Assembly: GCA_044225555.1 (NCBI GenBank)
Contig: JBGAIM010000004.1
Location: forward strand, 47,828 to 111,827
DNA: 64,000 bases
Direction of reading: 5' to 3'
Origin: Limisphaerales bacterium
Lineage (GTDB): Bacteria; Verrucomicrobiota; Verrucomicrobiia; Limisphaerales; JADLHS01
Shown here: piece after piece, positions 5,311 to 63,473 of the stretch
Layout: the number at the start of each line of letters is the position of its first letter
Position numbering within the stretch: position 1 is the first letter of the stretch
Program-made: the position numbers and the translations under genes
The notes under the pieces: generated by a model
What the model saw: the letters and a program-made list of their open reading frames with translations, nothing else
The model's database searches: none
Told to the model about the DNA's origin: nothing

Positions 5311-5982
5311 TTACGCCTCCGGCGTCACGCCCATCACGATGTCGAACTTCGCCGCCAGTTCGTTGGCGCGGGAATTTTTCAGCGGCGCAAAATCCACCGT
5401 CACGGACGCGCGCGCTTTCGGGTCGGTGAGATTTTTCCAGATGCCGTCCTCCGGGTTCTGCGGATGGCCTTTGATGTAGCATTGCGTGGTGAGCAGTTCC
5501 TTGCCGCTGTGCTTGATCTTGAAATGCACGTGCGGCGTGCGGCCCGGATACGGCACGGGTTTGATGGTGCGGAAAACGTATTCACCAGTCGAACCCGTGA
5601 GGAACCGACCGAAGCCCTGGAAATTTGCATCGCGCTTCGCCGCATTGTCGCTGCCGCGATGGAGATAAACGCCCTTCGCGTCGCACTGCCAGATTTCCAC
5701 CAGGGCATTGCGAATCGGGTCGCCCTTGGAATCCAAAACCCGCCCGCTCAACCAAGTGACTTCGCCCACCGCGGGAGTGATGGCGTCGTTGAGTATCAGC
5801 AAGTCGTTGTCGGTGTCGAGCGGCAGGTGGTCGGGATAAAACGGCCCTTCGGTCTGTCGCGGTGTCAGCGTCAATTGTTCCGCAAAGGCCCCGGGTACGG
5901 CGAAGAGTGCCGTCGCCATTCCAAACCGGGTCAGGAAACGGCGACGATTGTCGAGCCGGCCAAAAGTCACGGTGGGTTTCAT
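5311..5982 (-). CDS. intradiol ring-cleavage dioxygenase family protein (Tat signal)
   Basis: ORF 5311..6165 trimmed to ATG 5982, giving a twin-arginine leader (NRRRFLTRFGMATALFAVPGAFA). TEGPFYP, VEIWQCD and GRTPHVHFKI motifs. Confidence 0.7.
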   Translation of the reverse strand: MKPTVTFGRLDNRRRFLTRFGMATALFAVPGAFAEQLTLTPRQTEGPFYPDHLPLDTDNDLLILNDAITPAVGEVTWLSGRVLDSKGDPIRNALVEIWQCDAKGVYLHRGSDNAAKRDANFQGFGRFLTGSTGEYVFRTIKPVPYPGRTPHVHFKIKHSGKELLTTQCYIKGHPQNPEDGIWKNLTDPKARASVTVDFAPLKNSRANELAAKFDIVMGVTPEA

Positions 5983-16189: not shown

Positions 16190-16821
16190 AAAAAATATTG
16201 GTCATCGAAGACGAACCGGAGATGCGCCGTAACCTCACCACGCTCCTGCGTTTTCAAAGCTACCAGCCCGTCGCGGCCGAAAATGGACGCCTGGGTGTTG
16301 AAGCCGCGCGCCGGGAAAAACCCGACCTCATTCTGTGCGATGTCATGATGCCGGATCTGGACGGTTACGGTGTGCTGAAAGCCTTGCAGACCGACACATC
16401 GCTGGCGCGGATTCCGTTCATTTTCCTCACGGCCAAAGGCGAGAAGGACGATCTCCGCAACGGCATGGACTTGGGCGCGGACGATTATCTGACCAAGCCG
16501 GTCGCCAACGCCGACCTGGTCCGGGCGATTGAGGCCCGCCTGCGCCGCTCCGAACAGCAGGTGAGTCGTGAATTCAAACCGGACTTCTCCTCCTTCGCAC
16601 CACTGCTGAAGCTCGGCCTCACGCCGCGCGCCGCCGAGGCGTTGCTTTGGCTGGCGCAAGGCAAGACAAACGCGGACATCGCCACGATCCTGGGCATCAC
16701 TGAATCCACCGTGAAGAAGCACGTCCAGGAAATGTTCGAAAAACTGGGCGTGGAAACCCGCGGCGCCGCTACCATGCGCGCCCTGGAAGTTCTGAACTCC
16801 CAACCTCACGTCGGCACCTGA
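16186..16821 (+). CDS. response regulator, REC + LuxR/FixJ-type HTH
   Basis: ATG 16186 overlaps the kinase stop (ATGA). KILVIEDE, DLILCDVMMPDLDG and a C-terminal LTPRAAEALLWLAQGKTNADIATILGITESTVKKH. Confidence 0.85.
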   Translation: MKKILVIEDEPEMRRNLTTLLRFQSYQPVAAENGRLGVEAARREKPDLILCDVMMPDLDGYGVLKALQTDTSLARIPFIFLTAKGEKDDLRNGMDLGADDYLTKPVANADLVRAIEARLRRSEQQVSREFKPDFSSFAPLLKLGLTPRAAEALLWLAQGKTNADIATILGITESTVKKHVQEMFEKLGVETRGAATMRALEVLNSQPHVGT

Positions 16822-16955
16822 AGCGAAACACTGACAACCTCGAACCGACGGCAAGTTTGCGTTTGTTTGGCGTTGCGTAAATCAGGTGTCTCTGGTGTCT
16901 TTTGAGCATCGCTGGACGCCAGATCGTCACGCCATCAACTTAACCAGACAACTGT

Positions 16956-19724
16956 ATGCCGAACAATCGAGCCATTCTCCGGTCCCTTTTGGGATTGTTG
17001 CTTTCACTGCTGCCCCTGCCCTGCGCCACAGCGGCAGCCACTGCCCCCGAAATTGAAATCCCCTTCAAGAAGTTTGTTCTGACGAACGGACTGACCCTGA
17101 TCGTACATGAAGATCACAAGGCGCCGATCGTGGCGGTCAACCTCTGGTATCATGTCGGTTCGAAAAATGAAAAGCCGGGCAAGACCGGTTTCGCGCACTT
17201 GTTCGAGCACATGATGTTCACGGGCAGCGACCACTTCAAAGGCAACGGCGATCAAAGCGCGTTTTTTGGAGCCATGGAACGCATTGGCGCCACGGATTTG
17301 AACGGCACCACGAGCAACGACCGCACGGATTTCTTCGAGAACGTGCCGAAGAACGCCCTGGACGTGGCCTTGTGGATTGAATCGGACCGGATGGGCCATT
17401 TGCTCGGGTCCGTGGATCAAGCCCGATTGGATACCCAGCGCGGCGTCGTACAAAACGAAAAGCGTCAGGGCGAAAACGAACCCTATGGCGTGGTCGAAGA
17501 ATTGATCGTCAAGGGTACCGCGCCCGTGGGCCATCCCTATTCCTGGACCGTAATCGGTTCGATGGAGGACCTCGGCGCCGCCTCGCTCAGTGATGTGAAG
17601 GAGTGGTTCACCAACTACTATGGGGCGGCGAACACGGTGCTCGTGCTGGCCGGCGACATTGATGCCGACACCGCGCTGAAGAAAGTCGAGCATTACTTCG
17701 GCGAAATCCCGGCCGGGCCGCCGGTGGCCCGCTACCAGACCTGGATTCCTCAAATTCCGGGCACGCGCCGCGAGATCGTTTCCGACCGCGTTCCTCAGGC
17801 ACGGCTCTACAAGGTCTGGAACATTCCCCCCTACGGCGAGGCGGAGAATGTTTGCCTCGATCTGGTGAGCGATGTGTTGGCTTCGGGCAAATCGTCCCGG
17901 CTGTTCAAGCGCCTGGTTTACGATGAGCAGATTGCCACCGACGTCTCGGCCTCCATCAGCCCGAACGAAATCAGCGGCCAGTTCATGATCGTCGCCACCG
18001 CCAAACCCGGGGTGGATCTGGCGAAAATTGAAAAGGCGATTGACGAGGAAGTCGCGCGCTTCCTGGCCAAGGGCCCGACCTCGGCGGAATTACAACGGGC
18101 GCAGGCGGGCAAGATCGCGGGCTTTGTGCGCGGGGTGGAGCGAATTGGCGGCTTCGGCGGCAAGTCGGATGTCCTGGCAATGAATGAGACCTATCGCGGC
18201 GATCCTGGCTTCTACAAGACGCCGCTCAAGTACACCCGCGAGGCGACCGTTCGCGAGCTTCAACGCGCGGCGAAGCAATGGCTGACCGATGACGTGTACA
18301 TCCTCGAAGTCCACCCGTACGCGAATTACGAAACGACCCGCAGCACGGTGGACCGCTCGAAACTGCCCGGCCCCGGGCCGGACCCGGAGGTGAAGTTTCC
18401 GGCATTTCAGCGCGCCACCCTGGCCAATGGGTTGAAGGTCCTGCTCGTGGAGCGCCATGCCATCCCGCTGGTGCAATTCAACCTGCAATTGGACGCTGGC
18501 TATGCCGCCGACCAGTTCGCCATCCCCGGCACGGCCAAGTTGACCATGCAGATGCTGGATGAGGGCACCGCCAAGCGCACGTCGCTCCAGATCAGCGATG
18601 AACTGGCATCCCTCGGCGCAAATCTCGGTGCGGGCTCGAGCCTGGATGTCTCCAGCGTCAGCCTGTCCACCCTCACCTCCACCCTGGACCGCGCGCTCGA
18701 CATCTATGCGGACGTGATTTTGAATCCCGCATTTCCCCCATCGGATTTCCAGCGCCTGCAAAAACAACTGCTCGCCGGCATTCAACAGGAGAAAACCGAA
18801 CCCTTCGGGATCGCGCTGCGGGTATTTCCGAAACTCCTCTACGGTACCGGCCACGCCTATGGAAATCCACTGCGCGGCTCCGGGACCGAAGCCTCGGTCA
18901 GCAAACTTACCACCGCCGACCTCCGCAAGTTCCACGACGCCTGGTTCAAGCCAAACAATGCCACGCTCATCGTCGTGGGCGACACCACGCTCAAGCAGAT
19001 CCAGCCCAAGTTGGAAAAACTGTTTGCCGGGTGGAAATCTGGCACGGTGCCGATCAAAAACCTGGCCGCCGTCCCGCACCAGCCGAACCCATCCGTATAT
19101 CTGATCGACCGTCCGGGTGCCATCCAATCGGTCATTCTCGCGGGCCATGTCGGGCTGCCGAAATCCGACCCGGACAACATCGCCGTCGAAACGATGAACA
19201 CCATTCTGGGCGGCACCTTCACCTCTCGCGTAAACATGAATCTGCGTGAGGACAAGCACTGGGCGTACGGAGCGGGGACGGTCCCGCTGGCGGCAAAGGG
19301 GCAGGGCCCGTTCGTGGCCTATGCGCCGGTTCAAACCGACAAGACAAAAGAATCCATGATCGAGATGGACAAGGAACTGCGCGGGATTCTGGGTCCGCGC
19401 CCGATCACCCAGGAAGAACTTGGTACTGCGCAGAAAAATCAGACGCTCAGTCTGCCCGGCCAGTGGGAAACCATCGGCGCCGTGGAAGGCTCGCTGGGTG
19501 AAATCGTGACGTTTGGCCTGCCGGAGAATTACTTCACGACCTATCCGGACCAAGTCCGCGCGCTCACCGTGAACGACCTGACGAAAGCCGCCCAAAAAGC
19601 GGTGCATCCGGACCAGTTGGTCTGGGTTGTGGTCGGCGACCGCTCCAAGATCGAAGCGCCCATCCGTGAACTCGGGTGGGGCGAAATCAAATCGCTCGAC
19701 GGGGACGGAAATGTCGTGAAGTAA
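16956..19724 (+). CDS. M16 (pitrilysin/insulinase) family zinc peptidase, fused double module
   Basis: Signal peptide, the inverted zinc motif HLFEHMMF (HxxEH), and two M16 + M16_C halves in 922 aa. Confidence 0.85.
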   Translation: MPNNRAILRSLLGLLLSLLPLPCATAAATAPEIEIPFKKFVLTNGLTLIVHEDHKAPIVAVNLWYHVGSKNEKPGKTGFAHLFEHMMFTGSDHFKGNGDQSAFFGAMERIGATDLNGTTSNDRTDFFENVPKNALDVALWIESDRMGHLLGSVDQARLDTQRGVVQNEKRQGENEPYGVVEELIVKGTAPVGHPYSWTVIGSMEDLGAASLSDVKEWFTNYYGAANTVLVLAGDIDADTALKKVEHYFGEIPAGPPVARYQTWIPQIPGTRREIVSDRVPQARLYKVWNIPPYGEAENVCLDLVSDVLASGKSSRLFKRLVYDEQIATDVSASISPNEISGQFMIVATAKPGVDLAKIEKAIDEEVARFLAKGPTSAELQRAQAGKIAGFVRGVERIGGFGGKSDVLAMNETYRGDPGFYKTPLKYTREATVRELQRAAKQWLTDDVYILEVHPYANYETTRSTVDRSKLPGPGPDPEVKFPAFQRATLANGLKVLLVERHAIPLVQFNLQLDAGYAADQFAIPGTAKLTMQMLDEGTAKRTSLQISDELASLGANLGAGSSLDVSSVSLSTLTSTLDRALDIYADVILNPAFPPSDFQRLQKQLLAGIQQEKTEPFGIALRVFPKLLYGTGHAYGNPLRGSGTEASVSKLTTADLRKFHDAWFKPNNATLIVVGDTTLKQIQPKLEKLFAGWKSGTVPIKNLAAVPHQPNPSVYLIDRPGAIQSVILAGHVGLPKSDPDNIAVETMNTILGGTFTSRVNMNLREDKHWAYGAGTVPLAAKGQGPFVAYAPVQTDKTKESMIEMDKELRGILGPRPITQEELGTAQKNQTLSLPGQWETIGAVEGSLGEIVTFGLPENYFTTYPDQVRALTVNDLTKAAQKAVHPDQLVWVVVGDRSKIEAPIRELGWGEIKSLDGDGNVVK

Positions 19725-51846: not shown

Positions 51847-52320
51847 TCAAAGCCCGAAGCCGTGAATCAGCGCCCGGCTCGTGCCATACGCGATGAAGGC
51901 CAGCACGAAGGTCGCATACAGCAAATTGAAAATCCGGGCCCGGGCTTCAAGAAAGGATTTCAAACGATCACGCCAGCGTCCGGGCAGAAGGCTTTGGGCC
52001 GCTGTAAACAGGAACAGCGCCAGGATCAGCATGCCCATGGGATGGTAGTGCCAGCTCTCGACGAACATCCCGCGCACCCCACAACTCAGGCTGCGGGTCA
52101 GGCCGCAGCCCAGACACGGGATGCCCGTGGCGCTCTGCCACCAGCACAGTTGGATGCCCGCGATACCGTGCGGCGGGCAAGCCAGCGCCAGTGCGAGTCC
52201 AAGCCAGGCCACGATGACGCAGGGCTTACCCAGCCAGAGGTCGGCAACGTTCGCTGGTTTGGCGAACCAGTTCTTGATTCGCACGAACCCGGGAACAGAT
52301 CGTAACACTGCTGCTGGCAT
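51847..52320 (-). CDS. DUF2752 family membrane protein
   Basis: ATG 52320. IPCLGCGLTRS motif and four hydrophobic helices. Confidence 0.65.
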   Translation of the reverse strand: MPAAVLRSVPGFVRIKNWFAKPANVADLWLGKPCVIVAWLGLALALACPPHGIAGIQLCWWQSATGIPCLGCGLTRSLSCGVRGMFVESWHYHPMGMLILALFLFTAAQSLLPGRWRDRLKSFLEARARIFNLLYATFVLAFIAYGTSRALIHGFGL

Positions 52321-52333
52321 GCAAGTGTTGCTG

Positions 52334-52978
52334 CTAATTGATAAACCGCAAAACAATGTTGAGGACGAACGCGAAACCGTAGAGGACTTTCAAAGTGTCG
52401 TCTTCGTTTACTCTGAACACGTAATAAAGGGCGTACAAAGGAATGCACAACGCGAGAAACCCCGTGCCGATGTTGTCGCGAAAAGCGGCGACCGCGACAA
52501 TGATGTGAACCGTCAAAACGTAAAGCACGGCCACGCCGAGAAACGCCAGCTTCATGCCCGGGTTATCCTTTCCCAAGAAATACAACGCCCCGAGGACTAC
52601 CACCACGAGCCCGACATAGGGAAAGGCGGTCTTGTACCAAGGAGTTTCCCACTGATCCTTGGCCGGTTTGCCAGGCGCCGCCGGCTTTCCAGCCACCATG
52701 CGTTTGCCGGTCGCCATGTTGTAACCGCATTTGGTGCATAAGACCGCTCCCCGCGGGAGCGCCGCCCCGCAAGACGGGCAACCAGACGCACTGCTTTGCG
52801 CCGGGGCCGGGGCGGGTGCTGGCGGTGGCGGCGGTGGCGGCGGCGGTGCTGCTGCCGGAGTGCCCGGCACCATCATACTACCGTGGCAGGCCGGGCAGTT
52901 GATTTGCATGCCCGCGTAGCCCGTGTCCGCTTGAATGTGCTGCTGGCAGTGCGGACAGGAGAATTTGATTTCGGCCAT
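52334..52978 (-). CDS. zinc-ribbon / poly-proline / membrane protein (hypothetical)
   Basis: Two CxxC pairs at the N-terminus (CPHCQQ..CPACHG), a PPPPPPPPPAPAPAP tract, a second ribbon (CPSCGA..CTKCG) and C-terminal TM helices. Confidence 0.6.
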   Translation of the reverse strand: MAEIKFSCPHCQQHIQADTGYAGMQINCPACHGSMMVPGTPAAAPPPPPPPPPAPAPAPAQSSASGCPSCGAALPRGAVLCTKCGYNMATGKRMVAGKPAAPGKPAKDQWETPWYKTAFPYVGLVVVVLGALYFLGKDNPGMKLAFLGVAVLYVLTVHIIVAVAAFRDNIGTGFLALCIPLYALYYVFRVNEDDTLKVLYGFAFVLNIVLRFIN

Positions 52979-53218
52979 AAGAGTTAGCTTTCCCGAGGCT
53001 GATTTCGTGCCACGCTGCCAAAATCAACCCCAGACGTCAAATCTCGTTCGCAACTGAAGATTCGAGAATTGAATCCAGATCATCGGCTGGTCAAGAAGCC
53101 GGGAACTGCACCCGGAAGGTAATGATGCGCCTGAAGGTTGCAGGATTACAGGTTGCAAGTTCACCGCCGCGGACGACGGACAAAACCTGCAACCTGCAAC
53201 TTTCAACCGGCAACGCGC

Positions 53219-54355: not shown

Positions 54356-54776
54356 AAAAGTTGAGAGTTGAGGGGTGAAACAAAGTGAGGGTGCGGAGGT
54401 TTTGCGTCTTGCAACTCGCAACCTTCGGGCTTCGACCGAATTGGTTCCCGAGGTTGGTATCGCGTCACGTCTCCTCGTCTTCGGCGAAACGCGGTGGCGC
54501 ATTAACGCCGTGCGATTACCCAGTAGTAAATTGCTTCTTCAAACGAGATGGAAGGTCGGGGCGAGATGCTTCGAAACTCGGTTGAGCTTTCCGGCTTACG
54601 CACACCGGCAACACGCTCCGGGACCGGTTGTTCTGGTTGGGCTGGTGAAGGTGTTTTTTCCTTCAAGTCATCATTCATTAATGGGTGGATTGGTTGCATA
54701 GGGATCATGGGTTGAACCGTAGCCGCAGCGGTGTCGCATTCAGGGAACACCGCTGCGGTTAGAGATGATTGGTCCT

Positions 54777-54923
54777 TCAGACCGTTTTGATTTGGGGTTT
54801 CAAACCGAAGCGCGCCGGACGAAACACAAATGTCAATTTGGCCCGGCGGATTCGGAGGATACGACCTGGCCGGTAGCTCTTGCGAAAGAGCAACTGGCTT
54901 TGATAACGGAGAACAGGTTTCAT
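54777..54923 (-). CDS. possible 48-aa highly basic small ORF
   Basis: ATG 54923 is preceded by AAAGGAAATCCC (good SD). MKPVLRYQSQLLFRKSYRPGRILRIRRAKLTFVFRPARFGLKPQIKTV. Below the 60-aa cutoff of the track. Confidence 0.25.
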   Translation of the reverse strand: MKPVLRYQSQLLFRKSYRPGRILRIRRAKLTFVFRPARFGLKPQIKTV

Positions 54924-55015: not shown

Positions 55016-55086
55016 TGGTTCGCGCGGAAGGACTCCCACCTTCGAGTTATGAGCATCAGGCGCTGGCGATTGAGCCACGCGAGCGA
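55016..55086 (-). ncRNA. degenerate tRNA-like element, initiator-tRNA-derived (CAU-containing loop), encoded A-CCA end
   Basis: Minus strand: TCGCTCG-CG-TGGC-TCAATC-GCCA-..GCTCATAACTCGAAGGT..-GAAGG-TGGGAGT-CCTTC-CGCGCGA-A-CCA. Acceptor pairs 6/7. The anticodon arm cannot be folded. Confidence 0.3.
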
Positions 55087-55094
55087 TGGGCAAT

Positions 55095-55168
55095 TGGCTG
55101 CTCAGGCTGGAATCGCACCAGCATATTCCGGGTAACAACCGGAGGGATTACGGTCATCCGACTGAGGA
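55095..55168 (-). tRNA. tRNA-Asn(GUU)-like gene with non-canonical T loop (UGCGAUU), no D-loop GG, encoded CCA
   Basis: Minus strand: TCCTCAG-TC-GGAT-GACCGTA-ATCC-C-TCCGG-TTGTTAC-CCGGA-ATAT-GCTGG-TGCGATT-CCAGC-CTGAGCA-G-CCA. All stems pair except C2.C71. Confidence 0.6.
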
Positions 55169-55175
55169 ATGAAAT

Positions 55176-55251
55176 TGGTCAGCGCGGCAGGAGTTGCACC
55201 TGCGTATGCTCGGTCCCAAGCCGAGGGCGTTGGCTGCTACGCTACGCGCTG
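55176..55251 (-). tRNA. tRNA-Pro(UGG)-like gene with non-canonical T loop (UGCAACU), no D-loop GG, encoded CCA
   Basis: Minus strand: CAGCGCG-TA-GCGT-AGCAGCCA-ACGC-C-CTCGG-CTTGGGA-CCGAG-CATAC-GCAGG-TGCAACT-CCTGC-CGCGCTG-A-CCA. A 76-nt perfect cloverleaf with U8, A14, A21, U33, G37 and A58 present. Confidence 0.65.
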
Positions 55252-55388
55252 ATGACTCCGAGCGGTTGAAAAGAAACGTCGGAGTGGAGAACACGACACC
55301 GAAAACCCTGGCCATCGGCATCGCGGTAAGATTTGAAATTGGTGCTCCCAGCGGCCAACGCCCCGCAAATCAAAATTCGTAAATGGTT

Positions 55389-55462
55389 TGGTGCGGTTGC
55401 CGGGAGTCGCACCCGGACATGCTCGCTGGCAAGGAGCCAATCTGCTCTTAAATCACAACCGT
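55389..55462 (-). ncRNA. tRNA-Gly(GCC)-derived tRNA-like element (no foldable D arm), T loop UGCGACU, encoded A-CCA
   Basis: Minus strand: ACGGTTG-TG-ATTTAAGAGCAGATTG-GCTCC-TTGCCAG-CGAGC-ATGT-CCGGG-TGCGACT-CCCGG-CAACCGC-A-CCA. A1.C72 and C31.C39 are mismatches. Confidence 0.35.
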
Positions 55463-55797
55463 GGAAATTGAAAGGGCCGGGAGCGTCATTGCGCTTCCGA
55501 CCCAGGCCATTTCAATAAAGAACAAACACCTCTTGCTAGCTTGCGCTACCAACCCGCGGTTTCACGGCGGCTGTTTCGGTGTTTAGGGGCACACCTCCTC
55601 CAAAGCCCTTCGATTGTAAAAGCTGTTCAAATGGTCTCGGCGCGCGGTTTCGCCCCGCGTGGGCACACCACGTCGGTGGAACGCCATCGCGTTCCGGCAC
55701 CTCAATTCGTTTGGCACGGTCCGACATCATCAAGACGTCACTTTGCGAAAACTCACAGTTATCCTTTCGTTGCCGCCATCCACTATCAGTTTCAGGG

Positions 55798-55832
55798 AAA
55801 CAAAAAACCCTGCTTCCCGTCGGGAAGCAGGG
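55798..55832 (-). terminator. rho-independent terminator
   Basis: On the minus strand CCCTGCTTCCC-GAC-GGGAAGCAGGG is followed by TTTTTTGTTT. Confidence 0.75.
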
Positions 55833-55853
55833 TGGGGAGAAAACTTAATCTCG

Positions 55854-56030
55854 TTACGACTTTACCTGCTTGCCGGGAGTCCAATTGGGAATCAGCCCAT
55901 AACGGGACCGGGTTACCAATCGGCCTTGGCCGAATTCACAGCCGAGGATGGCGCGATCATGACGCGTCGCATTTGGCGCGACCCGTTTCATCGTCCAGCC
56001 CGGGGCTGATATGTTCATGCAGTTTCTCAT
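55854..56030 (-). CDS. 58-aa ORF resembling an internal fragment of an SOS-response-associated peptidase (SRAP/YedK)
   Basis: MRNCMNISAPGWTMKRVAPNATRHDRAILGCEFGQGRLVTRSRYGLIPNWTPGKQVKS. RYGLIPNW resembles the WGLIPxW motif. There is no MCGR N-terminus. The stop lies 22 nt before the terminator. Confidence 0.2.
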   Translation of the reverse strand: MRNCMNISAPGWTMKRVAPNATRHDRAILGCEFGQGRLVTRSRYGLIPNWTPGKQVKS

Positions 56031-56426
56031 CGAACGTGCGAGACGTGTATCACGCGGGCGCGGTTACCGTCCACTTATACTTTGCAGGTAGTCACTATTT
56101 TGAAACCAAATATCCGAATTGATTGATACCAAACTGTCACACCGACAACCTCCACTCAACTGCGGCCGTGCGGGACCGGCGGCCACAAATCGGAAGTCCT
56201 CAAGAAATCCATGCGCGCCCGGCGGGGGACTTCAAGCCTGGACAACCTGAACAGCCATACTATTTCAAATTGGGCCGTGGTCGCACATTGACGGTCCGGT
56301 TGGAGTTTGCTACCACCCTTGGGAATCACAACACCTGATTTCGTATCTGACATTTTTGAAGTGCCGGCTTTGCTTCCCAGGCTGCCCGCCCACGGATTTG
56401 TCACGGTCCGGATTCGCGCAAAATAA

Positions 56427-62465: not shown

Positions 62466-63473
62466 TTATTCCAGGTCGGCAGGCTTCACCCCGGGTTTGA
62501 ATTTGCCAAAGCCGAACTGGGTGGGCTTGAACTCCCCGACGTAATCCACGTCAGCCTCGGCCGGCAGCCGGTCCCCCAATCCGAGCGTCCAATAGCACGC
62601 GTTAACCAACAGGCGGCGTAAGCCCACGCTCTCCAGGTCCGTCGCCGCGCCCATGGTCGTCGTCACGATCTGATTTGTTTTTCCACCCGCACCGGCATAG
62701 TTCAGCGTCCAGACGAGCGGCATCATGGGACTGTTCTTCGGTCCCTCGAGGGGCGAATCCCCGGGCTTCATGCCGGCCAGCACCTGTCCGCGAACGAGCA
62801 CTTGGGCGGAATCCGGCAGATGGACAACCCCATAAACATCGCTGGGCCCCCAAATATCGGTGACCCCTCGCAAGACGGGATGCGCTTTGAATTGTTCGTT
62901 GAGGATGCCGCGCGTGCTTTGCTTGCCGTGGTCGCCATGATGATTGACCCAGGTTTCACCCAGCACCTGCTGACCAAAACCACCCGGCCAATCCTTGCTA
63001 TCCCAACTGAACCGCGCATACGGGCTTTGCTTGTTCCGGCTGTAGGCAAATGCGTGCGTGCTGGTGCGGAGGGCAATGATCGGCTTGCCACGATCCAGAT
63101 AGTCCACGAAATGTTTCATCTCCGCATCCGGCAATTCGCGGAAGCGCAGGAGCATGACGCACAAATCGGCGGAGTCGAGCGCCTCCATTCCGGGGATGTT
63201 GGTCTGCGTATTGGGATCAATCGTGCCGTCCTTCGGATTGATGGCAAAGAGCACGGTACATTTGAACCCGTGGCGCGTGGCGAGCAGCTTCGCCAGCATC
63301 GGCAACCCTTCCTCGGAACGATATTCCTCGTCGCCGCTCAGGAACACGATGTGCCGGCCCGGCCCCGCCCCTTTCGCGCCCTCATACGTTACCCAGTCCC
63401 TGCCCGGCGCGAGGTTGCACATCGCGAACATCAGCGCTGAGGCAAAAATAACGGCAATTGATCTGGCTCTCAT
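62466..63473 (-). CDS. ThuA-like (class-I glutamine-amidotransferase-fold) secreted protein
   Basis: ATG 63473 (MRARSIAVIFASALMF) lies 4 nt after the upstream stop. HIVFLSGDEEYRSEEGLPMLAKLL is typical of PVC ThuA-domain proteins. Confidence 0.6.
   Translation of the reverse strand: MRARSIAVIFASALMFAMCNLAPGRDWVTYEGAKGAGPGRHIVFLSGDEEYRSEEGLPMLAKLLATRHGFKCTVLFAINPKDGTIDPNTQTNIPGMEALDSADLCVMLLRFRELPDAEMKHFVDYLDRGKPIIALRTSTHAFAYSRNKQSPYARFSWDSKDWPGGFGQQVLGETWVNHHGDHGKQSTRGILNEQFKAHPVLRGVTDIWGPSDVYGVVHLPDSAQVLVRGQVLAGMKPGDSPLEGPKNSPMMPLVWTLNYAGAGGKTNQIVTTTMGAATDLESVGLRRLLVNACYWTLGLGDRLPAEADVDYVGEFKPTQFGFGKFKPGVKPADLE

Follow-up and report, generated by a model that had tools for sequence, protein, structure and literature searches.

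A short cluster of tRNA-like units lies on the minus strand of a 64,000-nt stretch of DNA from a Limisphaerales bacterium (Verrucomicrobiota; contig JBGAIM010000004.1, positions 47,828 to 111,827), hereafter called the window. Four of the units carry G at position 55 of the T loop. The cluster is preceded by a conserved structured leader RNA, and a gene for an RNA ligase of the RtcB2 type follows on the same strand (Table 1). For comparison, we collected 80 genomic loci with relatives of this RtcB, 30 of them verrucomicrobial (L001-L030) and 50 from other phyla. We hold with high confidence that the units in the window are the remnant of a conserved, operon-like, RtcB-linked locus of Limisphaerales, namely an array of tRNA genes with G55 in the T loop and A18 in the D loop.

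Two of the units, tRNA-Pro(UGG) and tRNA-Asn(GUU), were called by ARAGORN and exceeded the gathering threshold of Rfam RF00005 (29 bits), and thus count as tRNA. In the Rfam alignment the T loops read UGCAACU (Pro) and UGCGAUU (Asn), with U54-G55-C56 in both; the D loops, AGCAGCCA with A18-G19 in Pro and GACCGUA in Asn, lack the GG dinucleotide, and CCA is genomically encoded in both genes. The first-pass annotation, made from the sequence letters, had described these two as full tRNAs with these features, and both programs agree. Alignment with orthologues bore out the finer description as well. In Pro all 21 of the 21 pairs are intact, all conserved nucleotides are kept, the acceptor end shows C1-G72 and A73, and the gene is 91% identical to its orthologues in L013, L016 and L022. 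The Asn gene has G73 and a C2.C71 mismatch, for which it stands alone among 18 orthologues; its D loop also differs from the AAUAGUA or AACAGUA of its closest orthologues. The spacers between the four units measure 7, 8 and 137 nt, as previously described, and part of the longest (55342-55252) is 81-83% identical to L001, L007 and L081.

The two outer units gave no ARAGORN call and no RF00005 match even at E<=10. They were recovered with R2, a covariance model that we built from 150 related array tRNAs, and G55 array tRNAs are accordingly under-called by standard tRNA finders in annotation. The Gly unit had been taken for a degenerate tRNA-Gly(GCC) without D stem; the origin holds, while the D stem proved to be weakened (AUUU/GAUU against AUUU/GAAU in orthologues) rather than absent, and the first base is A. 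Relative to Gly-GCC orthologues it carries G1A, an A-to-U change in the D stem and G39C, each of which breaks a pair, leaving the mismatches A1.C72 and C31.C39. The last unit had been likened to the initiator tRNA of E. coli. An initiator origin was ruled out, as the unit aligns as an orthologue of the array Arg-UCU gene (74.6% identity to that of L005) with a 7-nt deletion and an altered anticodon (CUUCUAA to CUCAUAA); because it is such a relic, the likeness to the initiator is coincidental.

When the whole window was scanned with R2, the four units (E from 1.6e-18 to 3.2e-7) were followed by matches of E = 0.16 or worse. Two further relics were recognized at the flanks of the RtcB gene. In 13 loci the 3' halves of array tRNA-Phe genes share 85-93% identity with the segment 54487-54437, and the 3' 28 nt of a tRNA-His relic match array His genes at 26 positions, at the site where intact arrays carry His. 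The window thus holds two callable tRNAs and four relics, in place of the about 20 or more clustered same-strand tRNA genes by which long arrays are defined. The alignments indicate that only Pro is intact and Asn slightly damaged, that the Gly, Arg, Phe and His units are pseudogenes, and that the rest of the array is gone. What had been read as an array of four units is the remainder of one that reaches at least 21 tRNAs in relatives.

Table 1. Features of the RtcB-linked tRNA locus and its viral counterparts (positions refer to the window unless a viral contig is named; R2, covariance model of array tRNAs)
Feature	Position	Strand	Evidence and remarks
Conserved noncoding block ending in a strong intrinsic terminator	55800-56129	-	70-81% identity across many loci
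Conserved structured leader RNA, abutting the first tRNA	55463-55740	-	helix P1 and hairpins
Impaired tRNA-Gly(GCC), array type	55389-55462	-	T loop UGCGACU; R2 46.5 bits, E = 4.9e-10
Spacer	55252-55388	-	homologous to the Asp-to-Pro spacer of intact arrays; Ala and Asp genes lost in the window
tRNA-Pro(UGG), G55 type, intact	55176-55251	-	ARAGORN; RF00005 54.7 bits; R2 78.6 bits, E = 1.6e-18
tRNA-Asn(GUU), G55 type, mildly degraded	55095-55168	-	ARAGORN; RF00005 39.5 bits; R2 49.8 bits, E = 6.5e-11
tRNA-Arg(UCU) relic	55016-55084	-	T loop UGGGAGU; R2 35.8 bits, E = 3.2e-7, anticodon arm unaligned
Gene for a very basic small protein, 48 amino acids, inside the array	54777-54923	-	with ribosome-binding site
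tRNA-Phe(GAA) relic, just upstream of RtcB	54442-54525 (about)	-	3' half kept, 5' half diverged; R2 10.6 bits, E = 1.5
RtcB2-type RNA ligase, 378 amino acids	53219-54355	-	PRK09588 512.6 bits (cutoff 407); TIGR03073 444.9 (cutoff 271.8)
tRNA-His(GUG) relic, downstream of RtcB	53088-53155	-	T arm CCGGG-UGCAGUU-CCCGG; R2 14.2 bits, E = 0.16
Leader core, viral contig L101	692-729		about 90% identity
Leader core, viral contig L140	6322-6360		about 90% identity
Leader core, viral contig L145	5639-5676		about 90% identity
Leader core, viral contig L161	6794-6831		about 90% identity

Syntenic arrays, which the first-pass annotation had proposed to look for, were found among L001-L030, where most RtcB genes sit within a same-strand tRNA array; this type of locus occurs in about 25 Limisphaerales genomes. 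Upstream of RtcB the order is leader, Gly-GCC, Ala-UGC, Asp, Pro-UGG, Arg-UCU, Asn, Ser, the small basic protein, Ile-GAU and Phe, and downstream it is Arg-GCG, Thr-CGU, His, Cys, Arg-UCG, Leu-CAG, Leu-UAA, Leu-CAA, Arg-CCU, Gly, Val, Glu, Lys and Gln. Intact arrays carry three or four Leu genes, and others, all on one strand. By ARAGORN the arrays reach 21 tRNAs per locus (L017), by Infernal more; L021 and L024 have 16 tRNAs of the G55 type each, and L010 has 15. The 50 RtcB2 loci from outside Limisphaerales showed no array, their sole tRNA being a canonical one on the opposite strand in L076. Reduction is also seen within the clade: L014, L018, L020 and L027 keep RtcB and the leader with no array tRNAs left, and one or two array tRNAs are left in L008, L012, L015, L022 and L028. 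The survivors in reduced arrays are Pro (L012, L022, L028 and the window) and His (L008, L012 and L015, with Cys beside it in L015), a pattern which suggests that Pro and His have a role that other array tRNAs lack.

Some arrays also contain, between His and Cys, a protein of the SPFH/Band-7 type or a second RtcB, and the arrays of L017, L021 and L081 contain Rsr/Ro60. Proteins of the arrays without known family gave nothing informative against PADLOC and PHROGs. In L081 a second, classical RtcB of 507 amino acids (16376-17899) and a putative metallopeptidase with weak similarity to Peptidase_U49/M48 (18141-19271) lie next to Rsr. Matches to RF01656 (ceN72-3_ceN74-2), a family which we take to be nematode stem-bulge RNAs related to Y RNAs, were detected in L017 (12895-12963, directly upstream of rsr), L002 (16214-16283) and L004 (14919-14987), and odd tRNA-like elements with canonical T loops lie nearby in L003 (2331-2403), L004 (12170-12242), L002 (15566-15642) and L021 (12297-12371). 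The RF01656 matches and the odd elements are probably bacterial Y RNAs of the YrlA/YrlB kind.

The departure at position 55 runs through the whole array family. G55 was found in 229 of 230 array tRNAs of the related loci, and after removal of a duplicate locus all 217 G55 tRNAs lay on the RtcB strand. Nearly all array tRNAs show A18-G19 in the D loop together with N54-G55-N56 in the T loop. Had ordinary tRNAs of the lineage carried the same loops, G55 would have been a lineage quirk, a refutation that the first-pass annotation had itself named; the attempt failed. Off-array tRNAs in the same loci (Asp in L012, Thr in L014, Arg in L020, Gly-CCC in L021, Leu-UAG in L081) are canonical, with TTC in the T loop and GG in the D loop, indicating that G55 marks the array and not the lineage. 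L081 carries both forms of Leu-UAG: the one at 5976 is of type II and has a TTC loop, whereas the one at 19724 belongs to the array, is of type I and has a TGG loop. The canonical Gly-CCC of L021 (69.2 bits) was the top match in the seven loci scanned with Rfam.

Tertiary pairs were then counted over a pool of tRNAs from the Limisphaerales loci and from viral contigs (385 with G55 and 179 with U55). D-loop GG was present in 11 of the 385 G55 tRNAs versus 168 of the 179 U55 tRNAs (Fisher p = 1.6e-114), and AG without GG was present in 331 and 2, respectively. Among the G55 tRNAs, AG in the D loop went with C56 (334 of 351) and was found in only 10 of 34 with G56 or A56 (Fisher p = 1.4e-19). Pro genes whose T loop has G56 or A56 show D loops such as AGUCUUUA, consistent with a change of the pair G19:C56 to U19:G/A56. 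The 54:58 pair was U:A in 175, A:U in 20 and C:A in 17 tRNAs. As the 19:56 and 54:58 tertiary pairs covary, the L-shape seems to be maintained, and the G18:U55 contact appears to be consistently replaced by A18:G55. Compensatory changes were also seen in the stems, at 12 of 21 pairs among 21 Pro orthologues and at 11 of 21 pairs among 18 Asn orthologues. These counts argue, as had been supposed from the window, that the G55 departure with loss of GG was selected and did not arise by random decay. No description of G55/A18 arrays was found in the searchable literature, outside which most subscription journals lie, so that this is not proof of novelty.

The array family covers at least 34 anticodons and at least 17 amino acids, and CCA is encoded in 209 of the 217 tRNAs (96%). 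Features of the acceptor end are those typical of each isotype: G3:U70 in Ala (8/8), C1:G72 with A73 in Pro (21/21), G73 in all Asn, Asp and Ser and in 5 of 6 Gln, and U73 in all Cys. In E. coli such acceptor-end features act as synthetase identity elements. The array Ser tRNAs keep the long variable arm.

Helix P1 of the leader is an invariant 7-bp helix (AAACACC/GGUGUUU) between 55584-55578 and 55530-55524. A terminal hairpin (55503-55474) gives way to a U-rich tract (55473-55463) whose end lies one base before the Gly unit. Across 27 of 31 verrucomicrobial loci, some of them devoid of array tRNAs, the leader shows 81-91% identity, and its inner hairpins show covariation in the form of compensatory changes. 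Differences are spread evenly over codon positions (368/415/411) and stops occur in some loci, indicating that the region is noncoding. Neither the leader nor the spacers gave an Rfam match above noise level. The leader is thus a candidate for a new cis-regulatory RNA or small RNA, and a possible attenuator. Further upstream, the conserved noncoding block contains short cores that are 86-89% identical across related loci, and its terminator consists of a 12-bp stem (55833-55807) and a T run. Three open reading frames of this upstream region were rejected as genes: one of 65 amino acids without codon periodicity and with stops in some orthologues, one of 193 amino acids on the plus strand with stop codons in orthologues, and one of 58 amino acids inside the block, again without codon periodicity (differences 102/122/139). 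By the same measure the 48-amino-acid frame inside the array is a real small gene, because its differences concentrate at the third codon position (276/236/476), in a pattern similar to that of the RtcB control (2027/1667/5617). By tblastn it is open, without stops, in 23-24 loci; the protein had no match in the family libraries scanned.

The RtcB of the window also matches Pfam RtcB. Its orthologues in Limisphaerales are 61-84% identical, the closest (80-84%) belonging to Verrucomicrobia subdivision 3 / Limisphaerales, and no database record with its exact sequence was found. The gene lies 660 nt downstream of the last of the four tRNA units, and no terminator-like site was found between the units and RtcB on the minus strand. 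The association with RtcB proposed in the first-pass annotation is therefore upheld in the window, in the related loci and once more, as described below, with an unrelated RtcB on a phage contig. In the tested outgroups (L052, L053, L059 and L067) prfH directly follows RtcB2. With tblastn, no adjacent PrfH was detected in the window or in L001-L030, the sole match in these loci being a 44-residue fragment that lies about 6.5 kb away from RtcB in L015. On this comparison, the tRNA array appears to have taken the place of the usual partner PrfH in the Limisphaerales clade. Except for the His relic, synteny and homology with intact arrays extend no further than the stop codon of RtcB, and no TROVE (Rsr) gene lies near the locus in the window. 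Downstream of RtcB, the minus strand carries genes without relation to the array, namely 52334-52978, for a zinc-ribbon membrane protein with a proline-rich linker, and 51847-52356, for a DUF2752 protein.

The same design was found on viral contigs. An exact search of IMG/VR with the Pro T arm GCAGGTGCAANTCCTGCCG gave 100 contigs. G55 tRNAs accounted for 15 of 15 tRNAs in L110, 19 of 21 in L146, 16 of 19 in both L101 and L145, 15 of 19 in L161, 12 of 14 in L140 and 8 of 10 in L187. With the first two positions of the D loop excluded, GG was present in 5 of 168 G55 tRNAs and in 160 of 168 U55 tRNAs of this sample. L146, which encodes terminase gpA, a portal of the lambda type and an S49 head protease, is a genuine phage contig; RtcB, 21 tRNAs and HNH follow one another on one strand, and this RtcB is only 31% identical to that of the window. 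The same design with an unrelated RtcB and HNH on a phage contig indicates that the module is mobile and conflict-associated. The link between RtcB and array was seen again in L145, the block Arg-UCG, Leu-CAG, Leu-UAA, Leu-CAA is common to L101, L145, L161 and the verrucomicrobial arrays, and a 39-nt core of the leader lies upstream of the first tRNA (Gly-GCC) in L101, L140, L145 and L161.

Canonical tRNAs with TTC and GG, namely several Met-CAU and Ser-UGA, lie inside otherwise G55 viral arrays (L146 2101-2173 and 2443-2515; L101 1002-1077 and 1740-1825; L140 5954-6030), and at least one viral-array Met-CAU is itself of the G55 type (L146 5159-5234). Some tRNAs may thus not tolerate the recoded elbow. 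Viral contigs with RtcB homologues taken from a protein search (L085-L087) carried no tRNAs. The deposited phage genomes of INPHARED, when queried with array segments of L017 and L146, yielded no G55 arrays and only weak single-tRNA matches. Caulobacter phage CcrColossus was rejected as a carrier, its tRNAs being canonical and the matching segment an unannotated tandem element. This segment (L188 8001-8185; CcrColossus 62633-62817) consists of two tandem elements of about 90 nt ending in CCGCCAA, within the phage tRNA cluster. Neither is called as a tRNA, and they are 77-80% identical to spacer elements of the L146 array.

Long tRNA arrays (L-arrays) have been described before, Verrucomicrobia included (PMC8421152; Tran et al. 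2016, PMC4758250). The arrays described here resemble them in the many same-strand tRNA genes that may duplicate housekeeping tRNAs, as the array Leu-UAG of L081 does, in their patchy, mobile spread, in the neighbouring rtcB and HNH genes, and in short type I Leu tRNAs with CAAnnGCAGA-like D loops. The cyanobacterial L-array is induced by translational stress and co-regulated with rtcB, and 23 of its 26 members are charged in vivo; such a silent-then-induced and charged state is known only for the Anabaena array (PMC8421152). G55 is not common to it, since 23 of 24 genes in the Anabaena array are canonical with TTC and GG, whereas G55/A18 is near-universal here, and no mention of recoded elbows was found in PMC8421152. 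Here, moreover, RtcB (in some genomes Rsr and SPFH) stands inside the array, and a conserved structured leader stands in front. We therefore regard the array of the relatives as a new variant of the known long tRNA arrays, set apart by its A18/G55 elbow. On plasmid delta of Nostoc PCC 7120, one gene of the Anabaena trn operon, elsewhere canonical, is called as Glu-CUC (L084 3007-3084) and has a TGCAACT T loop and a D loop without GG, the design of the verrucomicrobial arrays.

Four other systems invite comparison. The tRNA-Gly species NP1-3 of Staphylococcus lack G18-G19 and U55, as the array tRNAs do, and are nevertheless aminoacylated (PMC13443448). They represent one isotype feeding Fem transferases, with a shortened anticodon loop and weak EF-Tu determinants, and have no array, no RtcB link and no phage carriers. 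The pyrrolysine tRNA, tRNAPyl, is not a parallel set but one specialised suppressor, which has a compact core and is charged by a synthetase of its own. It is used on the ribosome. It nevertheless lacks G18G19 and T54-Psi55-C56, Psi being pseudouridine, and its bacterial form has G55 (PMC1851642). The RtcB2-PrfH ribosome repair module (PMC9304027, PMC9223846, PMC6514570) shares the ligase family, but has prfH where tRNA genes are found here. The Salmonella rsr-yrlBA-rtcBA operon with its YrlA RNA (PMC7790460, PMC4201824) is paralleled in L017, L021 and L081 by the joint presence of RtcB, Ro60/Rsr and tRNA-shaped RNAs. The window, in contrast, lacks Rsr, and the units form complete cloverleaves in which the anticodon arm and loop are normal and a Ro-binding stem is absent, unlike Y RNAs of the YrlA type.

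From these comparisons we propose that the array encodes a second tRNA pool, which would be chargeable by host aminoacyl-tRNA synthetases as the L-shape and the identity features of the acceptor end appear to be kept while the G18/U55 contact is swapped for A18/G55. Since A18/G55 replaces G18/U55, array tRNAs cannot carry Psi55 or 2'-O-methylguanosine at position 18 (Gm18), and they would look different to factors that read the canonical elbow. The likeliest such factors would be tRNA-cleaving nucleases (tRNases) that attack the T loop or elbow during conflict between phage and host or between bacteria. Phage tRNAs reportedly escape host anticodon nucleases through changes in the anticodon loop, as van den Berg and colleagues are said to have described in 2023. 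A toxin of contact-dependent inhibition (CDI), CdiA-CT(E479), cuts the T loop between the conserved T and Psi (PMC9086364). The array tRNAs would share with these cases the concept of variant tRNAs unseen by tRNA-directed nucleases, but their change lies at the elbow and across a whole set, and their resistance is hypothetical. Such a pool would keep translation going while ordinary tRNAs suffer damage, RtcB from the same transcript would rejoin the cut RNAs, and the leader would gate expression via the terminator-like hairpin abutting the first tRNA. A spare, damage-resistant tRNA pool tied to RNA repair and gated by the leader RNA is a tentative proposal, to which we give somewhat less than an even chance; of the explanations offered in the first-pass annotation, the closest is its alternative, which ties spare or decoy tRNAs to nuclease damage and to repair by RtcB. 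Taken whole, an eroded array together with an auxiliary tRNA set coupled to RNA repair is the best explanation we can offer, and falls only slightly short of an even chance. A bolder version is possible though somewhat unlikely: 'orthogonal', host-chargeable A18-G55 tRNA sets, spread by phages with RtcB and domesticated by Limisphaerales, would allow cells or phages to discriminate their own spare tRNAs from ordinary ones under a damage-sensing leader that switches the set on, the benefit being either immunity to tRNases aimed at the elbow or T loop or evasion of modification and decay pathways that read the elbow.

Several observations weigh against a spare pool used in translation. No elbow-directed nuclease was identified in these organisms or phages. 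In the window at most two genes could still function, and the array is lost or reduced in about ten related genomes in which RtcB and the leader persist, indicating that the array tRNAs are dispensable there. C33 replaces U33 in Ala, Ser, Leu-GAG, Thr-GGU and half of Gly; U37 occurs in all Asp; His lacks G-1/C73; and array Leu tRNAs are short (type I), without the long variable arm. Each of these oddities could impair decoding or charging. A type I tRNA-Leu is chargeable by a bacterial leucyl-tRNA synthetase (PMC6614811). Finally, the IMG/VR sample was picked by the G55 pattern, and shows the existence of viral G55 arrays, not their commonness.

Much of the same evidence can be read as erosion without function, with selection acting only on RtcB and the leader, and Pro and Asn merely undecayed. 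Four of the six recognisable units in the window are pseudogenes, the downstream half of the array is absent, and L014, L018, L020 and L027 show that RtcB and leader can stand without array tRNAs. Yet Pro has kept every pair and conserved nucleotide and its close identity to orthologues while its neighbours decayed, and its survival in the reduced arrays of L012, L022 and L028 points to continued selection on this gene, so that we consider debris an unlikely account of the window units. If the array tRNAs were instead decoys, sponges or RtcB substrates, soaking up toxin or serving as a signal that is cut and religated, with little decoding, then the tight link to RtcB in two unrelated RtcB lineages, the non-canonical C33 and U37 of several families and the presence of Rsr and Y-like RNA in the same loci would be expected; a sponge role has been put forward for the array tRNAs of cyanobacteria, where some members undergo cleavage during stress (PMC8421152). 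A decoy, however, ought to look like its target, and tRNAs that have lost G18/U55 are poor elbow mimics of canonical ones; the kept discriminators, G3:U70 and a near-complete amino-acid set would also be costly if charging were irrelevant. We judge this reading quite unlikely.

The first-pass annotation had suggested dedicated non-ribosomal aminoacyl donors in the manner of the cell-wall tRNA-Gly of Staphylococcus. That precedent was accurate in substance as to the loss of U55 and G18G19, and the C33 and U37 variants might disfavour decoding. The exclusion of those tRNAs from translation, however, is ascribed to weak EF-Tu determinants in the T stem, at pairs 49:65, 50:64 and 51:63, and not to the missing U55 (PMC13443448), and tRNAPyl, which lacks the same motifs (PMC1851642), is the decoding tRNA introduced above. 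Moreover, at least 17 amino acids and 34 anticodons, anticodon loops that otherwise look canonical and isotype-typical discriminator bases do not fit a donor role, the same design occurs on phages, and no Fem-type, L/F-type, cyclodipeptide-synthase or other aminoacyl-transferase was found among the scanned array-linked proteins, several of which match no family. Donors of this kind are very unlikely. That G55 is a lineage-wide quirk of verrucomicrobial housekeeping tRNAs is refuted by the canonical tRNAs of L012, L014, L020, L021 and L081; nothing was found in its favour, and its probability is practically nil.

To our knowledge, few nucleotides in biology are better conserved than G18, G19, T54, Psi55 and C56, and the known exceptions are single specialised tRNAs. 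In the arrays, hundreds of tRNAs for most amino acids appear to share one coordinated A18/G55 replacement, as if the L-shape were selected and the universal contact were not. The RtcB2 family gains a second context beside PrfH-coupled ribosome repair. If the array tRNAs are charged and decode, the elbow code would be more plastic than assumed, the arrays would offer a natural scaffold for orthogonal tRNA engineering, and they would mark a front of conflict in which tRNA elbows are the target and recoded elbows together with RtcB the counter-measure.

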